A stretch of 64,000 nt of DNA. Source: a virus. Its lineage: Duplodnaviria > Caudoviricetes. Each line of letters starts with the position of its first letter. The first letter of the stretch is position 1. Position numbers and translations under genes: made by a program. Below the pieces are notes generated by a model. It was given only the letters and a program-made list of their open reading frames with translations, had not been told where the DNA came from and searched no databases. Positions 19,123-34,225 of this stretch are shown here, piece by piece. The stretch is from the IMG/VR virus record IMGVR_UViG_3300012979_000034, positions 1 through 64,000 of that record, one strand, 5' to 3'.

Positions 19123-19833
19123 CTAATATTGTCTAAAATCTAACACTTTATTGATAGACTCTTCTGTTATCTTAGATTCATCATATTCTTTACGATTTAC
19201 TAAAAGATCATCTGGGTCATAATTCTGATATACACTATATATAACGCTATCAAATGGTAAACTTATCTCCATTTTACCATTTTCTGGAAATAAGAGTAGT
19301 TTTACTTTTTTCGTAGTATGATTAACCTCTAATATATTAGCATCTATACCATCATAGGGATAACCTTTCAAAACTAAGTAATCACCAACTCTCAGATTAA
19401 TCAAATTATCAACAGAAAATCTTTTATTTTCTCTAGACAACCTCTGGAATCTTCTTACTTCTTCCTTTGTTGCAGTTGCTACAATTGAAAAATCATCAAA
19501 GATATCCATATTATCAATCCTTAGCTTTTTCTTCTTAGGATGTAAAGACTCTGGAGACTTTACCCATCCTCTAATACCGTCTATATCCCTTTTCATTTTA
19601 TTCATAAAATCCCTATTAAAAGCTAATTCAGTAGGGATTTTAATAAAACCATAGTTAAACAACAACGGTACTTTCTTATATACATCTTTACTCCTTGAAG
19701 TTTTAGTGAGAATCTTTACGATAGGTATAATAGCTTTACATCTAGTATAACCCTTTTCAATAAGTTCTGATTTTATATTTTCATAAAACTTATTTTCTAA
19801 GTAACATATACAATATACATAAGGTGTTTTCAT
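19123..19833 (-). CDS. nusG: NusG/RfaH/UpxY-family transcription elongation factor
   Basis: NGN-like PLLFNYGFIKI...IDGIRGWV and KOW-like LRVGDYLVLKGYPYDGIDANILEV. Confidence 0.8.
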   Translation of the reverse strand: MKTPYVYCICYLENKFYENIKSELIEKGYTRCKAIIPIVKILTKTSRSKDVYKKVPLLFNYGFIKIPTELAFNRDFMNKMKRDIDGIRGWVKSPESLHPKKKKLRIDNMDIFDDFSIVATATKEEVRRFQRLSRENKRFSVDNLINLRVGDYLVLKGYPYDGIDANILEVNHTTKKVKLLLFPENGKMEISLPFDSVIYSVYQNYDPDDLLVNRKEYDESKITEESINKVLDFRQY

Positions 19834-20348
19834 TGTCTTAGAAGTTTCTTAGCTTCTTTATGTACTAATTTATAACTTACTACTGATTTTACTTTACTAG
19901 CCATGAATATAAAAACATTATGATTACCAAACTTTAAAGTCATGTGAGTTTGGTTTAAAAGAGGTTTAAAGGCTAATAACATATCAGACTGAATAACAAA
20001 GAAAAACTCTTTCTTAGGCATAGAGTTATACCTCATACATAAAATAGGTATCTTATCAGTTCTTTTAGCATCTCTACAAGCTTGTTCCCAAAATTTAACT
20101 ATATCACAACCTTTATTCTCAAGAAGAACATGCTCAAAGCGTATGTCTTTATAGGATTTACATTCTATTGACAGTTTACATCTATGAGCATGTCTAGTAT
20201 CAGTGCAAGTAATATCTGCACCAGCATCTTTATTTCCCCACCATGATCCTGAACCAGCTCTATTTCTTTCAAATTTATAACCAGTCCATTCAGTTAACCA
20301 AGCAGCTACTGCCCGTTCCCAACGATTACCTTTATTCTTAGAATTCAT
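19830..20348 (-). CDS. Holliday junction resolvase (Hjc-like PD-(D/E)XK)
   Basis: SKNKGNRWER...GADI...IECK motif. Confidence 0.8.
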   Translation of the reverse strand: MNSKNKGNRWERAVAAWLTEWTGYKFERNRAGSGSWWGNKDAGADITCTDTRHAHRCKLSIECKSYKDIRFEHVLLENKGCDIVKFWEQACRDAKRTDKIPILCMRYNSMPKKEFFFVIQSDMLLAFKPLLNQTHMTLKFGNHNVFIFMASKVKSVVSYKLVHKEAKKLLRQ

Positions 20349-22108: not shown

Positions 22109-23094
22109 GTTTCAGCTTTATTTAGTAAACTTATTAATAAGTTTTTCTTGTCTTTATCTTTCATACCAATTTTCTTCATATAGCGTCTTGCTAGAGTTCT
22201 TTTAGAAAGTTGTTTAGTAATATTATGTTCATTTGTATTACTAATACTAGCTTTCTTAGGTAATACCGTATAATAATTACCATCCTCTATTATATCACTC
22301 TCATTTTCTACATCAATGAATTTAGGGAAATCCTTTAAGGGTAAAAATTTCATATCTAGGTTATCATATAATAACCATACCCCTAATTCACAATCTCTAT
22401 CTGTTCTCCTTTGTTGTAATGGAGCACCTATCATATAAACCTTTTTAGATAACCTTTGGGGTTTATGTATATGACCACATAATACTAAATCGAACCTATT
22501 TAAAATATTCAAATTTAGGTTTTCAACTGAATCTATAACCCTACCATCAGTATCCTTAGCTCCCGGGTAATCAGTATGTAACATTAAAATATGTTTATAA
22601 TCAGGGTCTAATTCCAATTTAGACAAATATTCATTTAAACCTATATTATGGTCTATGTAAGGTACTCCATGAATAACTACTGAAGATTCTGTTAACTTAA
22701 AACTTACATTATCTATATTATATACCCATCTATACCTATTTGATAAGTATGTAATTAAGCTATATTTAGGGTTATTTATTGTATTTACCTCTTTTAATTC
22801 ATGATTACCAGATATAGCTAATAATTCAAAGCTATTACCATCATAAAAATTAGCTTCATCGTCATACTTAGCAAATTCATTATCCATAAGATGAAGTAAT
22901 TCAATACTTATACCATCAGGCTTATGAAAGAAATCACCACAAAACAGAGAAATACAATGATGTTTATTACATAAATCTCTAACGAACGAAAGGACCCTAA
23001 AATGGTTCAAGGTCCTTTCGTTATTCTTATTAAACTTAGCCCAGATGTTTAAATGTAAATCAGAAAAAACAACAGCTAATACTTTTTTACTCAT
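22102..23094 (-). CDS. sbcD: SbcD/Mre11/gp47-like metallophosphoesterase nuclease
   Basis: SDLH, GDFF, GNHE, GHIH motifs; adjacent to SbcC. Confidence 0.9.
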   Translation of the reverse strand: MSKKVLAVVFSDLHLNIWAKFNKNNERTLNHFRVLSFVRDLCNKHHCISLFCGDFFHKPDGISIELLHLMDNEFAKYDDEANFYDGNSFELLAISGNHELKEVNTINNPKYSLITYLSNRYRWVYNIDNVSFKLTESSVVIHGVPYIDHNIGLNEYLSKLELDPDYKHILMLHTDYPGAKDTDGRVIDSVENLNLNILNRFDLVLCGHIHKPQRLSKKVYMIGAPLQQRRTDRDCELGVWLLYDNLDMKFLPLKDFPKFIDVENESDIIEDGNYYTVLPKKASISNTNEHNITKQLSKRTLARRYMKKIGMKDKDKKNLLISLLNKAETC

Positions 23095-23789
23095 AGTTTT
23101 AATTGATACTTTAGAATCAACTCCCTTTCATTTAAACCAAGAGAAGAAATGGTTAATACATCAGTATGACCATATATATTCTCTATAAAACCGTATTCTA
23201 CACTGTCTGTTAATTCAACAAATCTATATAAACCCTTTGGAATACGTTCATAACTACCAACACGTTGATAACCCATAATACCAAGAGCAACCTTCATAAT
23301 ACCTGATATCTCAGCTTGAAAATAGTTGTTAGTTATCCTTTTATGATTATCTTCAGTAAGCCATTGATCTATATAACCTGGTTTAAAATCAAACATTACT
23401 AACAAATCACATTGTTGAACCAGTATCATAGAGCATAATCTAGAGAATTGGTCTAATTCACATGAAGGTTGTTTACCTGCTTGCTTATAAATAAAATAGG
23501 TCAAACTATCAAGGTAACTACGGTCAGAAACAAATATTGGATGTTCTCTGAACAATTTACGTCTTAGATCCAATATCTGATAATCCTCTAAATATTGGGT
23601 TTTAGAATCCCTATCTAACATATCTCTGTGAGAAAGCTCTTTTGTAGAGGGTATTAAATCTGATACAGAACCAGATATAAATTCATAACCCAATGCCTGA
23701 TACTCATCGGCTAACCATTTAGCTATGGTAGTTTTACCAATACCAGATGGACCGGCCATCATAATTCTTTGATACTTAAGGTTTTTCAT
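23091..23789 (-). CDS. P-loop nucleoside monophosphate kinase-like protein
   Basis: GPSGIGKTT and DRSYLD motifs. Confidence 0.7.
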   Translation of the reverse strand: MKNLKYQRIMMAGPSGIGKTTIAKWLADEYQALGYEFISGSVSDLIPSTKELSHRDMLDRDSKTQYLEDYQILDLRRKLFREHPIFVSDRSYLDSLTYFIYKQAGKQPSCELDQFSRLCSMILVQQCDLLVMFDFKPGYIDQWLTEDNHKRITNNYFQAEISGIMKVALGIMGYQRVGSYERIPKGLYRFVELTDSVEYGFIENIYGHTDVLTISSLGLNERELILKYQLKL

Positions 23790-24700
23790 TTTAATAATTC
23801 TTTAAAAGGTTTCATAAATTCATTAGTCATAAAAGATGAAAATGAGTATGAGATACAGATATTCTTGAAACGTTTTTCCTGTATTACCTTTTTCTTATAT
23901 GAATGTATGATATCATTAACTCTAGAATTTGGGTGATTCTTAACAAACCATTTCAAATCTATTAGTTGTTGATTTACTTTCCAAGCTCTTTCTATCTTTT
24001 TATAATCTTTTAAATCCTTATTTTCTAAAGCTTTTTCTATAGAACCGTACTCATCAAGGAATTTTCTAACCTTTACAGGACCATAACCTCTTACACCAGG
24101 GATATCATCAGAATTATCCCCAACTAGTGATAAATAATCAACAGTTTCATAAGATTCATATCCAAATAACTCTCTACAGTTATCAACCCTTACCATAGAT
24201 TCTTTTCTTGGATTAAATATCTTAAGCTTATCGCTTAACAACTGATTAAAGTCTTTATCACTTGAAATTAAGATATATTTATAATCCTTATTATCTTTTG
24301 TAGTTAAATAAAGGTATGCTAGAAAATCATCTCCTTCATAATTAGATATTTTATATTTATCAAAGATATAAGTAATTCTTAGCATCCTTAAAATTGCCAT
24401 TATTTGCTTTTTCTGAGCTTGTAAAGACTCATAATCTACTGATATATTTTTTCGATGAATCTTATAGGTTGGTAAAAGCTTTTCTCGGTATTTAGAATGG
24501 CCATTATCAAAGGATATTACTACTTTATACGGTTCAAACCTAGTTAAATACATGTGTAAGGATTTAAAAAACCCAAATATAGCTCCAGAAGGTTTACCAT
24601 CAGTAGAATGTAGATTCTCAAATTTATGGAAAGACTGGTGAAGTATATTTTCTCCATCTATTAATAGGATTAGCTTAGATTTAGATGATGCTTTCATCAT
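23786..24700 (-). CDS. 5'-3' exonuclease (FEN/RNase H-like)
   Basis: IDG, YEGDD, SSDKD, LVGDNSDDIPGVRGYG motifs. Confidence 0.9.
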   Translation of the reverse strand: MMKASSKSKLILLIDGENILHQSFHKFENLHSTDGKPSGAIFGFFKSLHMYLTRFEPYKVVISFDNGHSKYREKLLPTYKIHRKNISVDYESLQAQKKQIMAILRMLRITYIFDKYKISNYEGDDFLAYLYLTTKDNKDYKYILISSDKDFNQLLSDKLKIFNPRKESMVRVDNCRELFGYESYETVDYLSLVGDNSDDIPGVRGYGPVKVRKFLDEYGSIEKALENKDLKDYKKIERAWKVNQQLIDLKWFVKNHPNSRVNDIIHSYKKKVIQEKRFKNICISYSFSSFMTNEFMKPFKELLK

Positions 24701-25085
24701 ATTCTGAATACATTAGAAGACTTATATTATGAAAAGCTTTATTATAATCCTTGTTTAAGATAGAGAGTACTATATCTTGGAATATTGGGAAGGATTTTGG
24801 CTCTCTGAATGAGTTTTTAAACTGAAGAACATATTTTGATAAAAGTGTATCTTCTAGGTATATTACTCCATTATATGTATTTGGGTATTTATCCATAGTA
24901 ATAGCCATTTCACATACATGGGCTGATTTCTTTAAATCTGATAAACCATTTTTTCTAAAGAATCTTGAAACATATTTAAAAGCCTCACCCTGAAACCAGT
25001 TTAATTTATACTGGGATATAATGGTTACTGGTTCTATATCTAAATCTTCATAATGTGAACCACCAACTTCTCTTAATTTATTCAT
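24681..25085 (-). CDS. DUF3310/SaV-like protein
   Basis: VGGSHY...IEP...WFQGEAFKYVSR...KNGLSDLKKS; start set at MNKLRE. Confidence 0.75.
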   Translation of the reverse strand: MNKLREVGGSHYEDLDIEPVTIISQYKLNWFQGEAFKYVSRFFRKNGLSDLKKSAHVCEMAITMDKYPNTYNGVIYLEDTLLSKYVLQFKNSFREPKSFPIFQDIVLSILNKDYNKAFHNISLLMYSEYDESII

Positions 25086-26229
25086 TATCATCGTCTTCTT
25101 CCTCCTCTGAATTACTAAATGATTCATACTCTACTCCATCTACTGGGAAAAAATTCTCTTTTAAATTATCCAGTTTTTTACGAGTATTACCTATGGTATT
25201 TATACTAGCTTTACGTAAAAGCTTTCTTCTGAGATCTTCATCTTCTTCTAGAAGTTTCTGAAATTTCTCTTCACCACGACATAGCTGTTTATCTCCAAGT
25301 TTATATACACCACCAGAAGATTTTACTATAATTTCATTTTCTACAAAAACATCCTCTAAACCATAATATCTATCAAAACCAACCTCATGGAAAGTAGGAT
25401 TAAAATATACAGGACATTTTGAAATACTTGGTCTTGGTGGAGCTACCTTATTTTTAATTAATCTAACAGTTACTAATTTACCTGCCCTACGTTCTTTACC
25501 CTTATACTTAACAGTTATTGATTTACCTGAATAAAAAGCAGCTCTTATAGCAGCATAGAATTTCAAAGCAGCTCCTCCAGTAGTTGTAGTATTATCTTTA
25601 CCAAAACCAACATTCAAAGCTGTTCTTAATTGGTTAATATATATCTGAGTAATACCTAGTCTATAGAATAATTCTGAGCGTATACGAAAATATTTATATA
25701 AAGCCTTAGCTCTACCACCCATCTCAGCTTTACCCTCTACCATTTTAGCATCTATATTATCTGCACAATCCATAGCTGCTATAGAATCAACTACCAGTAA
25801 TATGGGTTCATTATGAGTTAATTGGGATCTCAAGTATATAGCTAAATCTGCTACTATATCAGCAACATATTCTATTCTAGTATCATTTACTACAGTTACA
25901 TTACTGGGATCAACACCATTAGTTTCAGCCCAAGAATTCATCCAAGATTGTTCTGCATCAACCCATATAACTTTACCACCAAGCTGTTGACAAGCATAAG
26001 CAAAATTATAAGCTATTAAAGATTTACCTGATGACTCTTCTCCAGCTACTTCTAAGATTTTACCAAATGGGATACCTCCACCAAAAGTATAATTAAGCAT
26101 AAAAAATGTAGAGGGTAACCAAAGCCCAGATTCTTTTGTATCTGAAGCTAATTTTACCATATTACCATACTTTTTAAGTATCTCATTTTTGGTTGGTACT
26201 TTTATACCGATTTTACCGTTCTTTGCCAT
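25078..26229 (-). CDS. recA: RecA/UvsX recombinase
   Basis: GEESSGKS Walker A, VVDSIAA Walker B, INQLR, GGAALKFYA. Confidence 0.93.
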   Translation of the reverse strand: MAKNGKIGIKVPTKNEILKKYGNMVKLASDTKESGLWLPSTFFMLNYTFGGGIPFGKILEVAGEESSGKSLIAYNFAYACQQLGGKVIWVDAEQSWMNSWAETNGVDPSNVTVVNDTRIEYVADIVADLAIYLRSQLTHNEPILLVVDSIAAMDCADNIDAKMVEGKAEMGGRAKALYKYFRIRSELFYRLGITQIYINQLRTALNVGFGKDNTTTTGGAALKFYAAIRAAFYSGKSITVKYKGKERRAGKLVTVRLIKNKVAPPRPSISKCPVYFNPTFHEVGFDRYYGLEDVFVENEIIVKSSGGVYKLGDKQLCRGEEKFQKLLEEDEDLRRKLLRKASINTIGNTRKKLDNLKENFFPVDGVEYESFSNSEEEEDDDNE

Positions 26230-28553: not shown

Positions 28554-28772
28554 TTATAAAAAACTTTCAGTAACTAACCTATCTGAGGTGGTTGTTTTCA
28601 CAGAATTATTATGAAGTATTAGATTACCACATTTAGGGCAACTTACATAAATAGAATTACTACCATCTCTTAAATTTACATTAACGCAATCCTCATATTG
28701 ATATTCAAATTCTGTATCACATACCTGACATTTAGCAATGAATACCGATGGACCTTTTAAAATCTTCTTCAT
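28554..28772 (-). CDS. small zinc-ribbon protein
   Basis: CQVC...CPKC. Confidence 0.7.
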   Translation of the reverse strand: MKKILKGPSVFIAKCQVCDTEFEYQYEDCVNVNLRDGSNSIYVSCPKCGNLILHNNSVKTTTSDRLVTESFL

Positions 28773-31023
28773 ACTCTTTCATCTCTTTAGAAAAATACTT
28801 AGGATAATCTTTAATACTTATATGTTTATATTTCTTAGCCAGTTCCATATATTCATCAACATTGAAATCAGGCTTTAACATATTATTATAATCATACAAT
28901 GGTATAAATGGTAATTCTTCTGCCATAGTTCTACCTATTTCATAATCCATATCCATTGTAACATCATCTATCTGAAAACCAAAAAATTTCTTAGTTCTTG
29001 GGTTTCTATAGATATTCCACATCGTATATATGGTCCATACATTAATAAATTCAGGCTTACTGTTAAAATAGTTAGCATCATGTACTAAGCAAACTGAATC
29101 CATTTTTGGTAACTTACCTTGCCTCATCATATAATATATTAATATTGAGCCAAATAAACACATATCTGATGCAGCTGATTGACAAGGGAAATTTAAACCC
29201 AATCTTATAGCATAAGCTACCTCATCACTATTGTTTGAATATATTTGTGGTAATCTTCTTTTTCTACCAAACAAAGATTTAAGATAACCGTTTTTCCTTA
29301 AATACTTTTCCTGTTTTTCCTTAAATACCTTTAATTTAGGATGCTCTTCAAAGTACTCATCCATTTGTTTTTGAGCTTCTTCTTTAGAAACTATTAAACC
29401 TGCTTTTGGATCTGATAATTTTACAGCTAGTAAAGCAGCACCAATACCATAAATCAAACCAAACGCTAATTGTTTAGCTTGTTTTCTTCTAGTTTTCCAT
29501 AGTTTAAAATCAGGATGTTTTTCATCTTCATAGATCTTAAGAGTTTCATTATAATCTACTCCATATTTTTTACAAGCAATAGCTAAATGAGGATCTTGAC
29601 CTTCTGCAAAAGCTTTCAGATATGTTTCATCTCCAGATAGGTGAGCCATTATTCTCAATTCAGCTTGGGAAAAATCTGAAGCAAAATATAAAGTTCCTGG
29701 TTTAGCTACTAATTGATTTTTTATATTAGGGTCAACTGAAGTCTTTGGTATCTGTTGTATATTTGGTTCTTGTGAACTTAATCTGCCAGATGTAGTACCA
29801 TGTATTAATAATCTACCATGTAAACAATTATCATCCTGTACTTTTTCATTCCAACCTAAAATATAAGTTTTATACATTTTTTCCAAACCTCTTAATTCCA
29901 TAAGCTTATCTAAAAATATAGCTTTCGGATTATCAGGTTTCTTTACTGTTAATCTTAATTCAACCAAAGTATCCTCAGACGTTGAGGGTTTACCTGATTC
30001 AGTTTTATTTATGGGTTCAAAACCTAAACCATGTTCTCCATACATTAGTAGAGGTAAATCATTATTACTATTTAGGTTGATAGGAGCAATTAATGCTTGC
30101 TCATTTTTAGTAATATATATTCCGGCACGGATATTAGCAATTTTATTCTGCCTACTAGTGATTTTTCTCTTATCTGCTGGATTATTTATATCTAAAGAAT
30201 CTAATTCTTCTTGTATTTTACTTATATATGCCTCTATCCTAGATTGGTTTAAATACTTTTGAAACTTTTTTACTTTTGGTAGATTCATTACCGTATTACG
30301 AGCATCATCTATCTTCGGTTTATAAGTATTGAGTAGTTCCTCATTAAAACCCCTATTTAAATATAAACCAGATTTCTCTACTGAAGTTAATACCCTTGAA
30401 GCAGTCATTATCAGGTTTCTATAAGTATCATACAAACCTAGTGTAATTAACTTATTTTCAAAGAAAATACTTAATCTAAAGGTATAATCAGTATCTTGAC
30501 AGCCATATTTACATAGAGGTTCTAATGGTTTTTCATCCCATGGTATTTTATCAAAGGCATCTTGCTTTTCATAATTACCATGTTCCGGTAAATACCTTTT
30601 GACCATATCTTTTAGTCCATTCGGTTTCTCCTCATTTAGTAAATACTTAGCTAACATACCATCTATAAGTACACCTCTATAGAATATACCATACTTCTCC
30701 ATTATCTGATTATCAAACTTAGCATTCCAGGCTATCTTAGTAATATTCCTATTACAAATAACCTGTTCACCAAAATACTTAAGTTCTTTTAACCAATCCC
30801 AACCTGGTTCAGTATAATCTTTAGTTTCTGGGTGATCTAAGGGTATAGAACAACCCATACCAGGTTGAAATGTTACTGATAAGATTGTTGGTTTAAAATC
30901 CCTATTATAAATTGGTTTAGCATTAGTTTCAAAATCATATGAAGCATATCCAGTTATTTTACAGGCTCTTACAAGTCGTTTCAGTTCTGAATGAGAACGA
31001 ATAATGTGATATTTTGTCTCCAT
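28732..31023 (-). CDS. polA: family A DNA polymerase with 3'-5' exonuclease
   Basis: DFET exo I, DFSQAELR motif A, KQLAFGLIYG motif B, VHD motif C. Confidence 0.95.
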   Translation of the reverse strand: METKYHIIRSHSELKRLVRACKITGYASYDFETNAKPIYNRDFKPTILSVTFQPGMGCSIPLDHPETKDYTEPGWDWLKELKYFGEQVICNRNITKIAWNAKFDNQIMEKYGIFYRGVLIDGMLAKYLLNEEKPNGLKDMVKRYLPEHGNYEKQDAFDKIPWDEKPLEPLCKYGCQDTDYTFRLSIFFENKLITLGLYDTYRNLIMTASRVLTSVEKSGLYLNRGFNEELLNTYKPKIDDARNTVMNLPKVKKFQKYLNQSRIEAYISKIQEELDSLDINNPADKRKITSRQNKIANIRAGIYITKNEQALIAPINLNSNNDLPLLMYGEHGLGFEPINKTESGKPSTSEDTLVELRLTVKKPDNPKAIFLDKLMELRGLEKMYKTYILGWNEKVQDDNCLHGRLLIHGTTSGRLSSQEPNIQQIPKTSVDPNIKNQLVAKPGTLYFASDFSQAELRIMAHLSGDETYLKAFAEGQDPHLAIACKKYGVDYNETLKIYEDEKHPDFKLWKTRRKQAKQLAFGLIYGIGAALLAVKLSDPKAGLIVSKEEAQKQMDEYFEEHPKLKVFKEKQEKYLRKNGYLKSLFGRKRRLPQIYSNNSDEVAYAIRLGLNFPCQSAASDMCLFGSILIYYMMRQGKLPKMDSVCLVHDANYFNSKPEFINVWTIYTMWNIYRNPRTKKFFGFQIDDVTMDMDYEIGRTMAEELPFIPLYDYNNMLKPDFNVDEYMELAKKYKHISIKDYPKYFSKEMKEYEEDFKRSIGIHC

Positions 31024-31048
31024 TAGTTTTATATGTTTGTTATGCTAT

Positions 31049-31074
31049 AATAGGGAAGATTTCTCCTCCCTATT
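31049..31074 (-). terminator. intergenic hairpin
   Basis: AATAGGGA...TCCCTATT. Confidence 0.45.
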
Positions 31075-31090
31075 ATTAAATTGTTTACCA

Positions 31091-31867
31091 TTAAACTAAG
31101 TCGTCAATGTTAGAATTTAGATAATGCCAATCTTTTTTATAAGCATGTAGAGAATCAATTGTATGATATAAATAGCCAGGTTTTATATTAATTTCCCTAG
31201 CAATATATTCCATAAGTCTCCAAGCTAAATATACATCATCTCCAAAGTGCATACAAAAATCTGAGCTCCTTTGGTGATATACTATGTTCAATTGTTTCTC
31301 ACCTCTAGCATTCCATCTGATTAGAAAATCATAATACATTGAACAAGGTATACGATGTTCTCCAGCATAATAATCACTATCAAAATCATGAGGACCAATA
31401 CCATATATACTTAAAACAGCCTTACGAGTACCTGGGTCAGTCTTTAGCAATTGTATAATAGCTTCCAACTTAGTCATCCTAGTACCATTAAATAATACTG
31501 GTTGATTAATACGTTCACAGTATGTATAATCAAAATGACGGTCATTGGTACCTACCAAAAATTGTTCCCACATATCTTCACGTAACTTCCAAGCTTCGCC
31601 AGGATTATTGTATGTTTCATCTGGATCAATTCTCTCCAGGAATTCAGCATCAGCCCATTCTTTAGCCTTTGTATATACAAATAGGTAATCTACATTTTTA
31701 AGTGAAGTTAAACAATACTGTTGACATATTATTTCTTTTGTAATAAAGTCATCAATACCTTCTATCACCTTATTCTGGTAAGTCTTTGGTTTTACTACTT
31801 GACCATAGCTATTGAGTTCTCTGCCCATCTCAGACATTAAATCTCTACAATCTGAATAAATTCTCAT
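31091..31867 (-). CDS. thymidylate-synthase-fold enzyme, dCMP-type (probable dCMP hydroxymethylase/methylase)
   Basis: DPGTRK, IPCS, QRSSDFCMHFGDD (Asp at the E. coli ThyA Asn177 position), SLHAY. Confidence 0.8.
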   Translation of the reverse strand: MRIYSDCRDLMSEMGRELNSYGQVVKPKTYQNKVIEGIDDFITKEIICQQYCLTSLKNVDYLFVYTKAKEWADAEFLERIDPDETYNNPGEAWKLREDMWEQFLVGTNDRHFDYTYCERINQPVLFNGTRMTKLEAIIQLLKTDPGTRKAVLSIYGIGPHDFDSDYYAGEHRIPCSMYYDFLIRWNARGEKQLNIVYHQRSSDFCMHFGDDVYLAWRLMEYIAREINIKPGYLYHTIDSLHAYKKDWHYLNSNIDDLV

Positions 31868-31868
31868 G

Positions 31869-32783
31869 TTACTCTTCTTTATGCTTTAAACTATTTTTAT
31901 GTTTTTTCTTATACAACTTACGCTGTGAAAAAGAGATACAATCCTCTGGATATTCTATATCTTCATATTCTAATAGTAAATCCCTAGCATATAAGGGTTT
32001 ATAAGTATATAGATCAGGTCTAAGTACTTTAAAACTCCTAAAGAATACCTTGAAAGATGAGAATTGTTTTTCTGTACCATTTTGAAACTTATTGAATACT
32101 TCCCATACTTTATCAGTAAATGGGTTTTGTACACCCTTTAATACTTTCTTGAGAGGTTTATAAGTGTGATACATCATCAGGGTTTCTATATTACCATACA
32201 TTTGAGTAGCAAATACATTTACCTGAATAGATTGTTCTGGTCCATATACATATTCAGACATCCTTTGAATTAATAAGAAATCAAATATTAACCTCTTAGT
32301 TATTTCCGATGCCCTCATTATCATAGTAACAACAGGAGTATCTTCCTGGAACCTTTTTGAGAAAGTAGCAGCTATTAAACACTGCTTACCATTATCGTGG
32401 TGGTTATTGAAAGTATAAGTTATGTTGTAATTTTGATTATACTTGTTCTTTAATACTCTAAGCTTAGAACGTAGTAAATCCAGTTTGTTAAAATCAATAT
32501 AATTGTTTAACAGGGAAGTCCATTTAGCTTCTGTATAATTAAACATTCTACCATAATCAAAATCAGGATCAACCCAAGCCTTCCTTATCTTTATAAATAC
32601 ATTGTATGATACAGCTACTCCACTATTAGCTGTAGCTCCAGCTTTAAATAATATTGGGTCTATTCTCAGAAAGGATTCATTTAACTTTTCCCAAGCTTCT
32701 TGTGAAGTTGCGAACTCTAAAGCATGTATATTCTCTTCTGTATTAGTTTCTAGACCCTTTAAAGGTTTATTCCATCCAGACAT
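31869..32783 (-). CDS. divergent thymidylate-synthase-fold paralogue
   Basis: GKQCL, MRASEITKRLIFD (Asp at the specificity position); lacks the RR loop and HxY motif. Confidence 0.6.
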   Translation of the reverse strand: MSGWNKPLKGLETNTEENIHALEFATSQEAWEKLNESFLRIDPILFKAGATANSGVAVSYNVFIKIRKAWVDPDFDYGRMFNYTEAKWTSLLNNYIDFNKLDLLRSKLRVLKNKYNQNYNITYTFNNHHDNGKQCLIAATFSKRFQEDTPVVTMIMRASEITKRLIFDFLLIQRMSEYVYGPEQSIQVNVFATQMYGNIETLMMYHTYKPLKKVLKGVQNPFTDKVWEVFNKFQNGTEKQFSSFKVFFRSFKVLRPDLYTYKPLYARDLLLEYEDIEYPEDCISFSQRKLYKKKHKNSLKHKEE

Positions 32784-33662
32784 TTAATAACCAGTTTTTT
32801 GTCTCCATAAGTTGAGACGTTGTTTTTTAAACATTAATACATATATACTCTCTTGATCAAAACCATTAAGACCCAAGTAACCAAGATATAATAGGAAAGC
32901 TTTTACTACAGCTTCCTGGTAATCAAGTTCTTTTGACATTACCTGTGTTTGCTTCCATGGACGATTCTTAAGCAAATTCCTAGCACAATTCAATTGATAG
33001 ATTACCTGCCACATTAAATATATACCATTGTTAATACGGGAAGGTGATAATGAATGAAACCCGGGAGCATATTGCTTGAATTTATCAAAATCGTTCTGAG
33101 TTTTATTGAACTTACCAGTAAAGATATCTGAACTTACTAACGGGAAACTAAGATGAAGCAAACTATCATATACATCAAAACCACAGTCATTTTGAAGCTT
33201 TATACCAAATGACATCAAATCATTGGTTGAATTTATATCTATACCACCATTAGAATCTGCATAATTAAAAATATCTTCTGGCAATATATTAGAGTATGTT
33301 AGAAGAGCAAAGAAGAATCCAAAAGCATCTGCTTGTTCTTCATTTGCATTTTGAATATGATTTAATACTTGATTATATTCTTTGTTATTGAGCTTATATA
33401 TGTTATAACCAATAGGATTTAAAATCTCATTCAATAGTAAAAGGGACTCATGACCCTCGGTTAACTCTTCTATTATTCTACCTATAAAATCCTTTAGTAT
33501 AACCTGATTCTTGGCAGTATTTATATCAAAAGGGTAAGCTGGTAGATTTTCTATAATACGATAACCCTCTAGCTGTTCTATACCCAAATCAAACATCTTT
33601 GACAGATACTCTTTTGGGTCAGATACCTCTAGAGGGTTTTCTGTAATATTTCTAATATCCAT
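32784..33662 (-). CDS. all-alpha (MazG-like / dimeric dUTPase family) dNTP pyrophosphatase, probable dCTPase
   Basis: EELTE, EEQAD, LKNRPWK, KKQRLNLWRQKTGY. Confidence 0.75.
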   Translation of the reverse strand: MDIRNITENPLEVSDPKEYLSKMFDLGIEQLEGYRIIENLPAYPFDINTAKNQVILKDFIGRIIEELTEGHESLLLLNEILNPIGYNIYKLNNKEYNQVLNHIQNANEEQADAFGFFFALLTYSNILPEDIFNYADSNGGIDINSTNDLMSFGIKLQNDCGFDVYDSLLHLSFPLVSSDIFTGKFNKTQNDFDKFKQYAPGFHSLSPSRINNGIYLMWQVIYQLNCARNLLKNRPWKQTQVMSKELDYQEAVVKAFLLYLGYLGLNGFDQESIYVLMFKKQRLNLWRQKTGY

Positions 33663-34225
33663 TAGTCACCAGAACCAAGTCCATTACTACCTCTGGTACC
33701 CCAAGTAGTAGCCAGATCTTCATATTCTTCTACTGATATCTCTTCCAGTGGTGTAATATAAATAGGTACATGAATAAACTGTAAAATAGAACCAACTTCA
33801 ACAACCTGAGTAGTACTACTAGTATTACAAATACCCAAATGAATTTCACCGGTATAAGGAGAATCAACAATCTCTGCAGTATATACTAAACCCTTTTTAT
33901 AGGATTTACCAGATTTATTTGCAGCCATTAGCATTGAATTTTCAGGCTCTATTAAAACTCTGATACCTGATGGAATCAATACACGTGAATGAGGTCCCAA
34001 GATTATACTGGTTATATATCCGGTACTGTGATTTATTACTGTTCTAACTATACCAACTCCAGTTATATCTGGGCTGATCACAATATCTTCAGCTTGAGCA
34101 TTAGCTGTACGGATATTTTCAATAGTTAAATTACTTGGAATCTTAAAATCCAAACCTGCATCTCCATGATTTGCATAAGAAGGTACTTCAACTTCCCTTA
34201 CCTTACAAAAGCGAATACGATTCAT
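33662..34225 (-). CDS. dut: trimeric dUTPase
   Basis: DAGLDF, NKSG, IVDSPYTGEI, RGSNGLGSG. Confidence 0.88.
   Translation of the reverse strand: MNRIRFCKVREVEVPSYANHGDAGLDFKIPSNLTIENIRTANAQAEDIVISPDITGVGIVRTVINHSTGYITSIILGPHSRVLIPSGIRVLIEPENSMLMAANKSGKSYKKGLVYTAEIVDSPYTGEIHLGICNTSSTTQVVEVGSILQFIHVPIYITPLEEISVEEYEDLATTWGTRGSNGLGSGD

Follow-up and report, generated by a model that had tools for sequence, protein, structure and literature searches.

A conserved phage gene cassette with two thymidylate-synthase-fold proteins: a putative pathway for C5 modification of cytosine deoxynucleotides

Introduction

Does a phage with two thymidylate-synthase-like genes next to its DNA polymerase gene make a modified cytosine for its own DNA, and would all of its cytosine then be replaced? 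The question arises from the IMG/VR virus record IMGVR_UViG_3300012979_000034 (Caudoviricetes). Its first 64,000 nucleotides (nt), here called the window, were analysed; the complete record comprises 82,404 bp with direct terminal repeats (CheckV 100%). On the minus strand of the window, from 34225 to 28732, five contiguous open reading frames (ORFs) encode a dUTPase, a pyrophosphatase, two proteins of the thymidylate synthase (TS) fold and a DNA polymerase:

33662..34225, minus strand: trimeric-type dUTPase with an insertion of ~45 amino acids (aa), 187 aa (Pfam PF00692)
32784..33662, minus strand: all-alpha nucleoside triphosphate (NTP) pyrophosphatase of the dimeric-dUTPase or d(C/U)TPase fold, 292 aa (AlphaFold2 (AF2) model and VIA)
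31869..32783, minus strand: TS-2, an orphan TS-fold protein, 304 aa (AF2 model)
31091..31867, minus strand: TS-1, a divergent ThyA-family enzyme with a cytosine-type Asp211, 258 aa (Pfam PF00303)
28732..31023, minus strand: family A DNA polymerase with 3'-5' exonuclease (PolA), 763 aa (Pfam)

The first four genes overlap or abut by 0–1 nt and therefore appear as one tightly coupled unit; the gap between TS-1 and PolA is 67 nt. A sequence-only reading had described this run as dUTPase, all-alpha dNTPase, two TS-fold genes and polymerase, and the five ORFs were found exactly where it had placed them.

Judged from sequence comparison, there is a slightly better than even chance that the block is a conserved operon for the pre-replicative C5 modification of a cytosine deoxynucleotide, the C5-modified deoxycytidine (dC) being made for the phage DNA. 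Systems of this kind are already known from phage T4, from Xp12/PaMx74 and from the 5-hydroxycytosine (5hoC) phages. New with respect to the literature are the TS-2 family, whose position is fixed, with a dimeric-dUTPase-type pyrophosphatase on one side and on the other a TS homologue that has Asp at position 177 of the E. coli numbering (Asp177), and the coexistence of such a cassette with a conserved C5-methyltransferase. A search of the literature for Gubaphage or Flandersviridae in combination with thymidylate synthase or modification yielded nothing relevant.

TS-1, a cytosine-type member of the ThyA family

At the superfamily level TS-1 is a thymidylate synthase relative: it scores 52.7 bits with Pfam PF00303 (Thymidylat_synt), the cut-off being 24.3. 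With the six NCBIfam TS equivalogs (cut-offs 108–405) it stays far under every threshold, the best being TIGR03283 with 60.2 versus 174.55. Its best match in the PDB is the dCMP hydroxylase AfhB (9iqu/9iqc, E 4e-7); MilA is matched weakly.

The substrate preference of the family hinges on residue 177. Exchange of Asn177 for Asp (N177D) leads to a preference for dCMP, and an acidic residue at 143 (D or E) goes with hydroxymethyl products, while D169N is the mark of the flavin-dependent 5-hydroxy-dCMP synthases (PMC13326640). In metaviromes, Asp177 TS homologues mark contigs with modified cytosine (PMC8670742). Residues 199–211 of TS-1 read QRSSDFCMHFGDD. The second Asp of this motif (D211) aligns with N177 of E. 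coli ThyA and with the Asp of T4 gp42 RSNDVVFGFRND, as had been claimed from the sequence alone; phmmer against solved TS and two MAFFT alignments, made with the real E. coli ThyA, T4 gp42 and PaMx74 sequences from public records, agree on this point. D211 is invariant in 19 family members, and gp42 of T4 and the enzyme of PaMx74 likewise have Asp at position 177. A ThyA-type dUMP enzyme requires Asn177 to read O4/N3 of uracil; its place is taken by Asp211 in TS-1. By its residues, TS-1 is thus a cytosine-type enzyme and a predicted dCMP C5-transferase.

Much of the remaining active site is that of E. coli ThyA. Kept are C175 (C146 in E. coli), R200, S201 and D203 (R166, S167 and D169), Y116 (Y94), W100 (W80), R148 (R126) as well as H241 and Y243 (H207 and Y209). 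Apart from D211 (N177), the changes comprise S176 (H147) and R172 (L143), an invariant Arg.

What the product might be is less easily read from the sequence. TS-1 has the Asp177 of the T4-type dCMP hydroxymethylases and lacks their acidic residue 143, which is Asp in T4 and R172 here. The D169N exchange of AfhB and RB69 gp48 is found neither in TS-1 (Asp203) nor in TS-2 (Glu160), AfhB showing RSQN at this site in the phmmer alignment; because Asp169 is kept, TS-1 is not expected to be a 5-hydroxylase. With the Xp12/PaMx74 methyltransferases it shares Asp177, and lacks the long C-terminus and the deaminase in cis. A rule that would distinguish methyl from hydroxymethyl products by L143 is not applicable, this residue being Arg in TS-1 and Asn in the enzyme of PaMx74, a 5-methylcytosine (5mC) phage.

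The C-terminus offers a further clue. The chain of TS-1 stops 15 aa past the H-x-Y motif (HAY), while ThyA and the enzyme of PaMx74 continue for ~55 aa. In TS this C-terminal region closes over the folate and is needed for hydride transfer, and so for the formation of the methyl group; when it is lost, thymidylate is no longer formed, yet partial reactions persist. The short C-terminus of TS-1 therefore speaks, with moderate weight, for a hydroxymethyl-type product and against a methyl one. Together with the kept equivalents of D169 and W80, which lie on the folate side, it makes a one-carbon hydroxymethyl group somewhat more likely than methyl.

TS-2, an orphan with the same fold

The sequence of TS-2 finds no match in Pfam, NCBIfam or the PDB, a profile search of the PDB with the TS-2 alignment included; it does match phrog_34294, a PHROG of unknown function. 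The TS fold, which the sequence-only reading had assigned to both genes and which Pfam supports for TS-1, is here seen in the AF2 model (pLDDT 91.8). The models were compared with solved structures by Foldseek and by VIA. Foldseek returned MilA (9e-6), AfhB (1e-5) and the T4 dCMP hydroxymethylase (dCH; 6e-5). VIA ranked AfhB 9iqu with a Z of 14.1 (177 aa, root-mean-square deviation 3.5) and MilA with 13.2, canonical TS reaching ~10. The closest folds, AfhB, MilA and T4 dCH, are all cytosine-specific enzymes.

The family is sizeable, forming 141 clusters at 50% identity. In 49 diverse members K87, W88, Y95, C135, R157, R164 and D168 are invariant, and Glu160 is nearly so. By hhalign against the TS-1/ThyA profile (E 1.1e-4), Cys135 corresponds to the nucleophile, Arg157 to R166, Glu160 to D169 and Asp168 to N177. 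The R126/R127 pair and the 3'-OH binders H207 and Y209 are missing. With the fold, the nucleophilic Cys and the R166-equivalent Arg, TS-2 belongs to the TS superfamily, and it is plausible as a catalytic paralogue.

Pyrophosphatase, dUTPase and PolA

The AF2 model of the 292-aa pyrophosphatase is all-alpha (pLDDT 93.6). An exhaustive VIA search of 48,161 chains puts three dimeric dUTPases on top, those of C. jejuni (1w2y, Z 12.1, 172 aa), a staphylococcal phage (5myd, Z 10.4) and L. major (2yay, Z 8.6), and the next reaches Z 6.4; these values lie in a range where helical proteins can mislead. Foldseek with the same model against the PDB gave nothing meaningful, the dimeric dUTPases surfacing only in VIA, and a PDB profile search with the family alignment produced no relevant match. 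Pfam dUTPase_2 scores 16.6 bits, under its cut-off of 22.9, and phrog_12184 (4e-16) covers the C-terminal 72 aa only. Family-invariant are two acidic metal-binding motifs (E65/E66/E69 and E108/E109/D112) and a C-terminal end, K280-Q-x2-N284-x-W-R287-x4-Y292.

With the dimeric dUTPases (1w2y, 2yay, 5myd) the protein appears to share the all-alpha fold and has the acidic metal-binding motifs in common. It differs from them in sequence (13–19% identity) and in length, being ~60–130 aa longer than the C. jejuni (226) and 5myd (160) chains and ~35 aa longer than that of L. major (257). Since it is encoded beside a separate trimeric dUTPase, its specificity is likely another one. That adjoining dUTPase and the Asp177 enzymes make it a candidate dCTPase that would supply dCMP. 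The sequence-only reading had seen an all-alpha dNTPase and likened it to the dCTPase gp56 of T4; the all-alpha nature is borne out, the resemblance to gp56 extends to the C-terminal end only.

The 187-aa protein is a trimeric dUTPase according to Pfam PF00692 (1.3e-9, 38.4 bits, cut-off 22), phrog_135 dUTPase (6.6e-16) and the conserved motifs 1, 3, 4 and 5. All of its 57 PDB matches are trimeric dUTPases, with AGLD, VDSPYTGE (motif 3) and RGSNGLGS (motif 5) aligned; NCBIfam dut reaches 54 bits, under the cut-off of 103. It likely converts dUTP to dUMP and thus keeps uracil out of DNA. PolA is recognised by Pfam DNA_pol_A (2.8e-66) and DNA_pol_A_exo1 (7.6e-19) and is presumed to be the user of the nucleotide pool made upstream.

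Conservation of the cassette

Gene order was examined in the best 80 of 402 IMG/VR relatives. Wherever the locus reaches, all of these keep the order dUTPase, NTPase, TS-2, TS-1, PolA, PolA following TS-1 sometimes with a small variable insert between them. Among the nearest relatives conservation is highest for TS-2 (~81% identity), followed by TS-1 (~67%) and the NTPase (~50%). Variable ORFs of 110–250 aa occur at differing points; some, for example, separate TS-1 from PolA or the NTPase from TS-2, and others follow PolA. One cluster alone amounts to 168 copies. Their representatives show ferritin-like/helix-turn-helix, DUF559 (Vsr-like nuclease) or ProQ-like matches, or none, and are probably mobile or accessory genes. 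An insertion of ispD/licD is reported for some members of the 'Flandersviridae' (PMC8008677); no transferase, IspD or LicD was seen among the representative inserted ORFs of the 80 nearest relatives.

The core of the cassette is also met at a greater distance. One distant contig (L007) has NTPase, TS-2, TS-1, a dCMP deaminase, PolA and an AAA_28 kinase; another (L096), cut off upstream, has TS-2, TS-1 and the deaminase; a third (L097) has NTPase, TS-2, TS-1 and ThyX. Two more (L010 and L098) carry the NTPase, two copies of TS-2 and then TS-1. The only context with TS-2 and no adjacent TS-1 is contig L012. The trio of NTPase, TS-2 and TS-1 is present in cultured Clostridium perfringens phages (CPAS-15, CP3, CPD4, Clo-PEP-1 and P21); in CPAS-15 the order is kinase, NTPase, TS-2, TS-1, three small hypothetical ORFs, PolA. 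Megablast of the block against GenBank phages gave no match.

Some annotations in these relatives deserve correction. By hhalign, the 'colanic acid biosynthesis glycosyltransferase' of CPAS-15 (MN417334, L004:5208-5957) is homologous to TS-2 (probability 99.3, E 2e-20). Its neighbour, labelled 'dUTPase' (214 aa), corresponds to the dimeric-type NTPase (E 2e-16), and the 'shikimate kinase' probably represents the nucleotide kinase of the cassette. In MT121964 (L001), MT836181, L010 and L098, two tandem TS-2 paralogues precede TS-1, so that three TS-fold genes follow each other; at the site equivalent to D169 one paralogue reads RASD and the other RSSE or RASE.

Related genes elsewhere in the genome

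Three genes outside the block are of relevance here, the first in the window and the others beyond it:

23091..23789, minus strand: P-loop nucleotide-kinase-like protein, 232 aa (Pfam AAA_28 3.5e-8)
genome 77004-78011, minus strand: DNA C5-cytosine methyltransferase-like gene, 335 aa (PF00145)
genome 80864-81772, plus strand: ThyX with an N-terminal extension, 302 aa (Pfam Thy1 1.3e-29, RHR..S..S.R motif)

The P-loop protein matches phrog_2107 'thymidylate kinase' (9e-8), has a domain of adenylate kinase 9 as its best PDB match (5e-5) and shares 28% identity (E 3e-13) with the AAA_28 gene that directly follows PolA in the distant contig L007. By these similarities it is a candidate deoxynucleoside monophosphate (dNMP) kinase for the modified monophosphate. 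Another ORF (24681-25127, minus strand, 148 aa) was rejected as kinase: it matched 'nucleotide kinase' PHROGs, yet contains a DUF3310 domain only and no P-loop. It overlaps the end of the UvsX gene by 50 nt.

The methyltransferase gene scores 33 bits with PF00145 (cut-off 22) and has SPDCG instead of PCQ in motif IV. Its Atlas cosine to viral C5-methyltransferase clusters is 0.98–0.99 and its structural TM (template modelling) value to bacterial enzymes ~0.7. It adjoins muramidase and terminase genes.

ThyX belongs to a small cluster of plus-strand genes close to the right end of the genome. Its presence makes TS-1 and TS-2 dispensable for dTMP in this phage, and contig L097 has the same combination. 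Since five close relatives have no ThyX, it is presumably a recent accessory gene, and the argument drawn from it is supportive, not general. Whole-genome Pfam searches gave no match for Tet/JBP, carbamoyltransferase or dCMP deaminase (PF00383). The sequence-only reading had seen no glycosyltransferase in the window; the complete 82.4-kb genome likewise revealed none with the Pfam GT1, GT2 and T4 beta-GT models, a search that is not exhaustive.

Proposed pathway and alternatives

If the block indeed serves the C5 modification of cytosine, the following sequence of events can be envisaged. The pyrophosphatase, the fold and metal-binding motifs of which are seen, would hydrolyse a deoxynucleoside triphosphate (dNTP), most likely dCTP, to the monophosphate. 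Cys175 of TS-1 would then attack C6 of dCMP, and a group would be added at C5; the residues for this are present, the chemistry is that expected from them. TS-2, encoded between the pyrophosphatase and TS-1 in every context that has TS-1, may be a partner subunit of TS-1 or the enzyme of a second step on the same nucleotide. The 232-aa P-loop kinase and a nucleoside diphosphate (NDP) kinase of the host would regenerate the triphosphate, and PolA would incorporate it. The uracil/thymine branch would be handled separately by the trimeric dUTPase and ThyX. ThyX beside TS-1 in contig L097 and a ThyX gene in the present phage argue that TS-1 is not the dTMP synthase.

Several observations weigh against this pathway. 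TS-1 fits no published product signature, having Arg at 143, Asp at 169 and a short C-terminus, and whole-genome Pfam searches revealed no transferase that acts on a hydroxymethyl group. The resemblance of the pyrophosphatase to T4 gp56 is weak (hhalign E 7.5e-4, probability 25%) and limited to the C-terminal 43 aa. A C5-methyltransferase is found in this genome, in 5/5 near-complete relatives and in MT121964, i.e., in 6/6 relatives tested; T4, PaMx74, CPAS-15 and a Gordonia phage lack it. In the whole genome, C-containing palindromes are avoided, the observed versus expected numbers being 162/282 for GATC, 181/254 for CATG and 0/6.5 for CCTAGG; ATGCAT is found 2 times versus 10.4 expected. 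The avoidance suggests that the DNA of the present phage is still exposed to restriction, although a mutational bias as well as host restriction systems may lie behind the numbers; heavily modified phages such as T4 are not known to show it. The CpG odds ratio of the genome is 0.38, TpG/CpA being 0.97 and CC/GG 1.32; a reading of the CpG depletion as a trace of 5mC deamination was rejected, since TpG/CpA is not raised.

The methyltransferase and the palindromes bear on how far a modification would go. Complete replacement, with dCTP eliminated and every cytosine of the virion C5-modified as in T4 or Xp12, had been proposed for this locus. The parts are indeed those of T4 and Xp12/PaMx74: a pyrophosphatase, an Asp177 TS homologue, a kinase candidate and an own polymerase. 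Moreover, the two adjoining dNTPases have no structural relationship, which suggests that one of them is not a dUTPase. The dCTP specificity of the pyrophosphatase is itself deduced, however, and the avoidance of GATC, CATG and CCTAGG speaks against complete replacement. A conserved C5-methyltransferase needs an unsubstituted C5 and would be left without a substrate if all cytosines were C5-modified; total replacement is therefore unlikely. As far as the sequences tell, the conservation of the methyltransferase argues that cytosine in replicating DNA is largely or wholly canonical, or that the substitution is partial. Of the original proposal, a cytosine-modification cassette beside the polymerase thus retains the support of its T4- and Xp12/PaMx74-like architecture, while full replacement is in conflict with the methyltransferase and the palindromes. 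The conflict would vanish if the cassette manipulated the nucleotide pool, 5-methyl-dCMP or 5-hydroxymethyl-dCMP being deaminated on a cytosine-first route to dTMP or dTTP, or dCTP being drained, with little or no modified base in the virion. For such a route speaks a dCMP-family deaminase between TS-1 and PolA in the related cassettes of L007, L096 and Gordonia SweatNTears. Deaminases linked to Asp177 TS homologues turn 5-methyl-dC into dT nucleotides, and 5/7 Asp177 TS homologues with linked deaminases make 5-methyl-dCMP (5mdCMP) (bioRxiv 10.1101/2024.12.05.627091). The present genome has no dCMP-family deaminase, however, and already owns ThyX, a pairing with TS-1 that recurs in L097. The TS-1 family lacks the long C-terminal region kept by ThyA and the PaMx74 5mC enzyme, and in the Xp12-type phages this route coexists with full 5mC substitution instead of replacing it. 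We therefore regard it as quite improbable.

Still harder to defend is plain housekeeping, with TS-1 and/or TS-2 as divergent synthases of dTMP from dUMP and both pyrophosphatases as dUTPases. It could invoke the Pfam family of TS-1, the name 'thymidylate synthase' given to its homologues by the sources, the dUTPases as closest solved folds of the pyrophosphatase, and the five close relatives that lack ThyX. Yet both TS-fold families invariably have Asp instead of Asn at position 177, TS-1 scores no more than 60 bits with the NCBIfam TS equivalogs and has a short C-terminus, ThyX occurs here and next to TS-1 in L097, and a phage with three TS-like genes and two dUTPases would be redundantly equipped; the idea is hardly tenable. 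A substrate other than the free dNMP, be it cytosine within DNA or RNA or a di- or triphosphate, comes to mind for TS-2, and possibly for TS-1: of the four arginines that bind phosphate in ThyA, TS-2 has lost three, along with the two 3'-OH binders (H207, Y209), and it has gained Arg164 and Lys87, which are invariant, as well as a C-terminal helix that is basic in the present phage. Its place, always directly downstream of a dNTP pyrophosphatase, points to a mononucleotide, and no DNA-binding domain was detected in it by Pfam and family-model searches, so that we consider this very unlikely. Finally, TS-2 could be a new catalytic branch of the TS fold which, with TS-1 (possibly as a heterodimer) and the pyrophosphatase, would produce an as yet undescribed C5 modification, beside a motif-specific 5-methylcytosine set by the conserved C5-methyltransferase of the phage. 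This we put forward as a tentative and rather doubtful extension of the C5-modification pathway.

The phage and possible implications

The phage is a myovirus, as had been stated from the sequence: sheath, baseplate wedge and tape-measure genes indicate a contractile tail. Its replication module comprises DnaB, primase, a superfamily 2 (SF2) helicase, a single-stranded DNA-binding protein (SSB), a UvsX-like recombinase, an exonuclease and SbcCD; for ~18 kb of ORFs no matching family was found. Downstream of SbcCD, on the minus strand (window 19123-20348), a PDDEXK_15 nuclease (172 aa) is followed by a 236-aa protein. The syntenic pair in the distant contig L012 (10725-11791) consists of PDDEXK_15 and a protein with a weak NusG match, which fits a phage NusG-like factor.

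Gut metagenomes contain hundreds of relatives of 84–88 kb. The 'Flandersviridae'/Gubaphage are described as phages with a genome of ~85 kb, a contractile tail, a colinear structural block, a DnaB-DnaG-PolA module and a block of ~20 kb of unknown genes; their predicted hosts are Bacteroides and Parabacteroides (PMC8008677). By size, gene order and gut relatives the present phage is consistent with this description, and its likeness suggests a Bacteroidota host. In human gut metagenomes such phages are reported to rank with the most frequent and abundant ones, and their replication module was published without mention of a base-modification pathway (PMC8008677).

If cytosine is indeed modified, this would bear on the evasion of restriction and CRISPR systems of Bacteroidales, on the recovery of such phages by sequencing and virome protocols, and on the enzymes that could be mined as tools. 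Should TS-2 prove to be a new branch, one of the most abundant phage families of the human gut would have a mosaic, doubly modified cytosine complement. The TS-2 family is testable now, since cultured C. perfringens phages carry the same trio. In any case, the conserved C5-methyltransferase warns against inferring total cytosine replacement wherever an Asp177 TS homologue is found.

Comparison with known systems

MilA, the CMP hydroxymethylase of the mildiomycin pathway (5b6d, 5jnh), is TS-folded and cytosine-specific and ranks second among the structural matches of TS-2 (Z 13.2). It differs in belonging to bacterial secondary metabolism, in using a ribonucleotide and in having Asp at 143 (PMC13326640); the identity is ~10%.

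The flavin-dependent dCMP 5-hydroxylases (AfhB of phage HY126, 9iqc/9iqu; RB69 gp48; DLP3 gp80) are the closest solved relatives of TS-1 (E 4e-7) and TS-2 (Z 14.1). Like these two they are short TS-fold enzymes with Asp177, yet their diagnostic D169N (PMC13326640) is absent from both TS-1 and TS-2. AfhB-type chemistry needs O2, while the phages with the present cassette infect presumed or known anaerobes, as far as their hosts can be deduced. Arabinose or glycosyl genes were not found.

The 5mC module of Xp12/PaMx74 consists of a nucleotide pyrophosphohydrolase, an Asp177 TS homologue and an in-cis 5mC-selective deaminase. The order of pyrophosphatase and Asp177 TS homologue is the same as here, and the deaminase in front of PolA in the related cassettes L007 and L096 is a further Xp12/PaMx74-like feature; the present genome has none. 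The PaMx74 enzyme, 19% identical to TS-1, has the full ThyA-like C-terminal region that TS-1 lacks. In PaMx74 no TS-2 is annotated between the two genes and there is no C5-methyltransferase; here both are present.

T4 assigns the corresponding tasks to gp56 (dCTPase/dUTPase), gp42 (hydroxymethylase) and gp1 (dNMP kinase). TS-1 and gp42 share 21% identity, and at 143 the former has Arg instead of Asp; the pyrophosphatase has only the C-terminal motif in common with gp56. The second TS-fold enzyme and, in this phage family, the C5-methyltransferase have no counterpart in T4, and a glucosyltransferase was not found in the present genome. The parts are nevertheless the same, a pyrophosphatase, an Asp177 TS homologue, a kinase and an own polymerase. 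Gp42 and TS-1 both have a C-terminus that is short compared with ThyA, and the pre-replicative logic is common to both systems.

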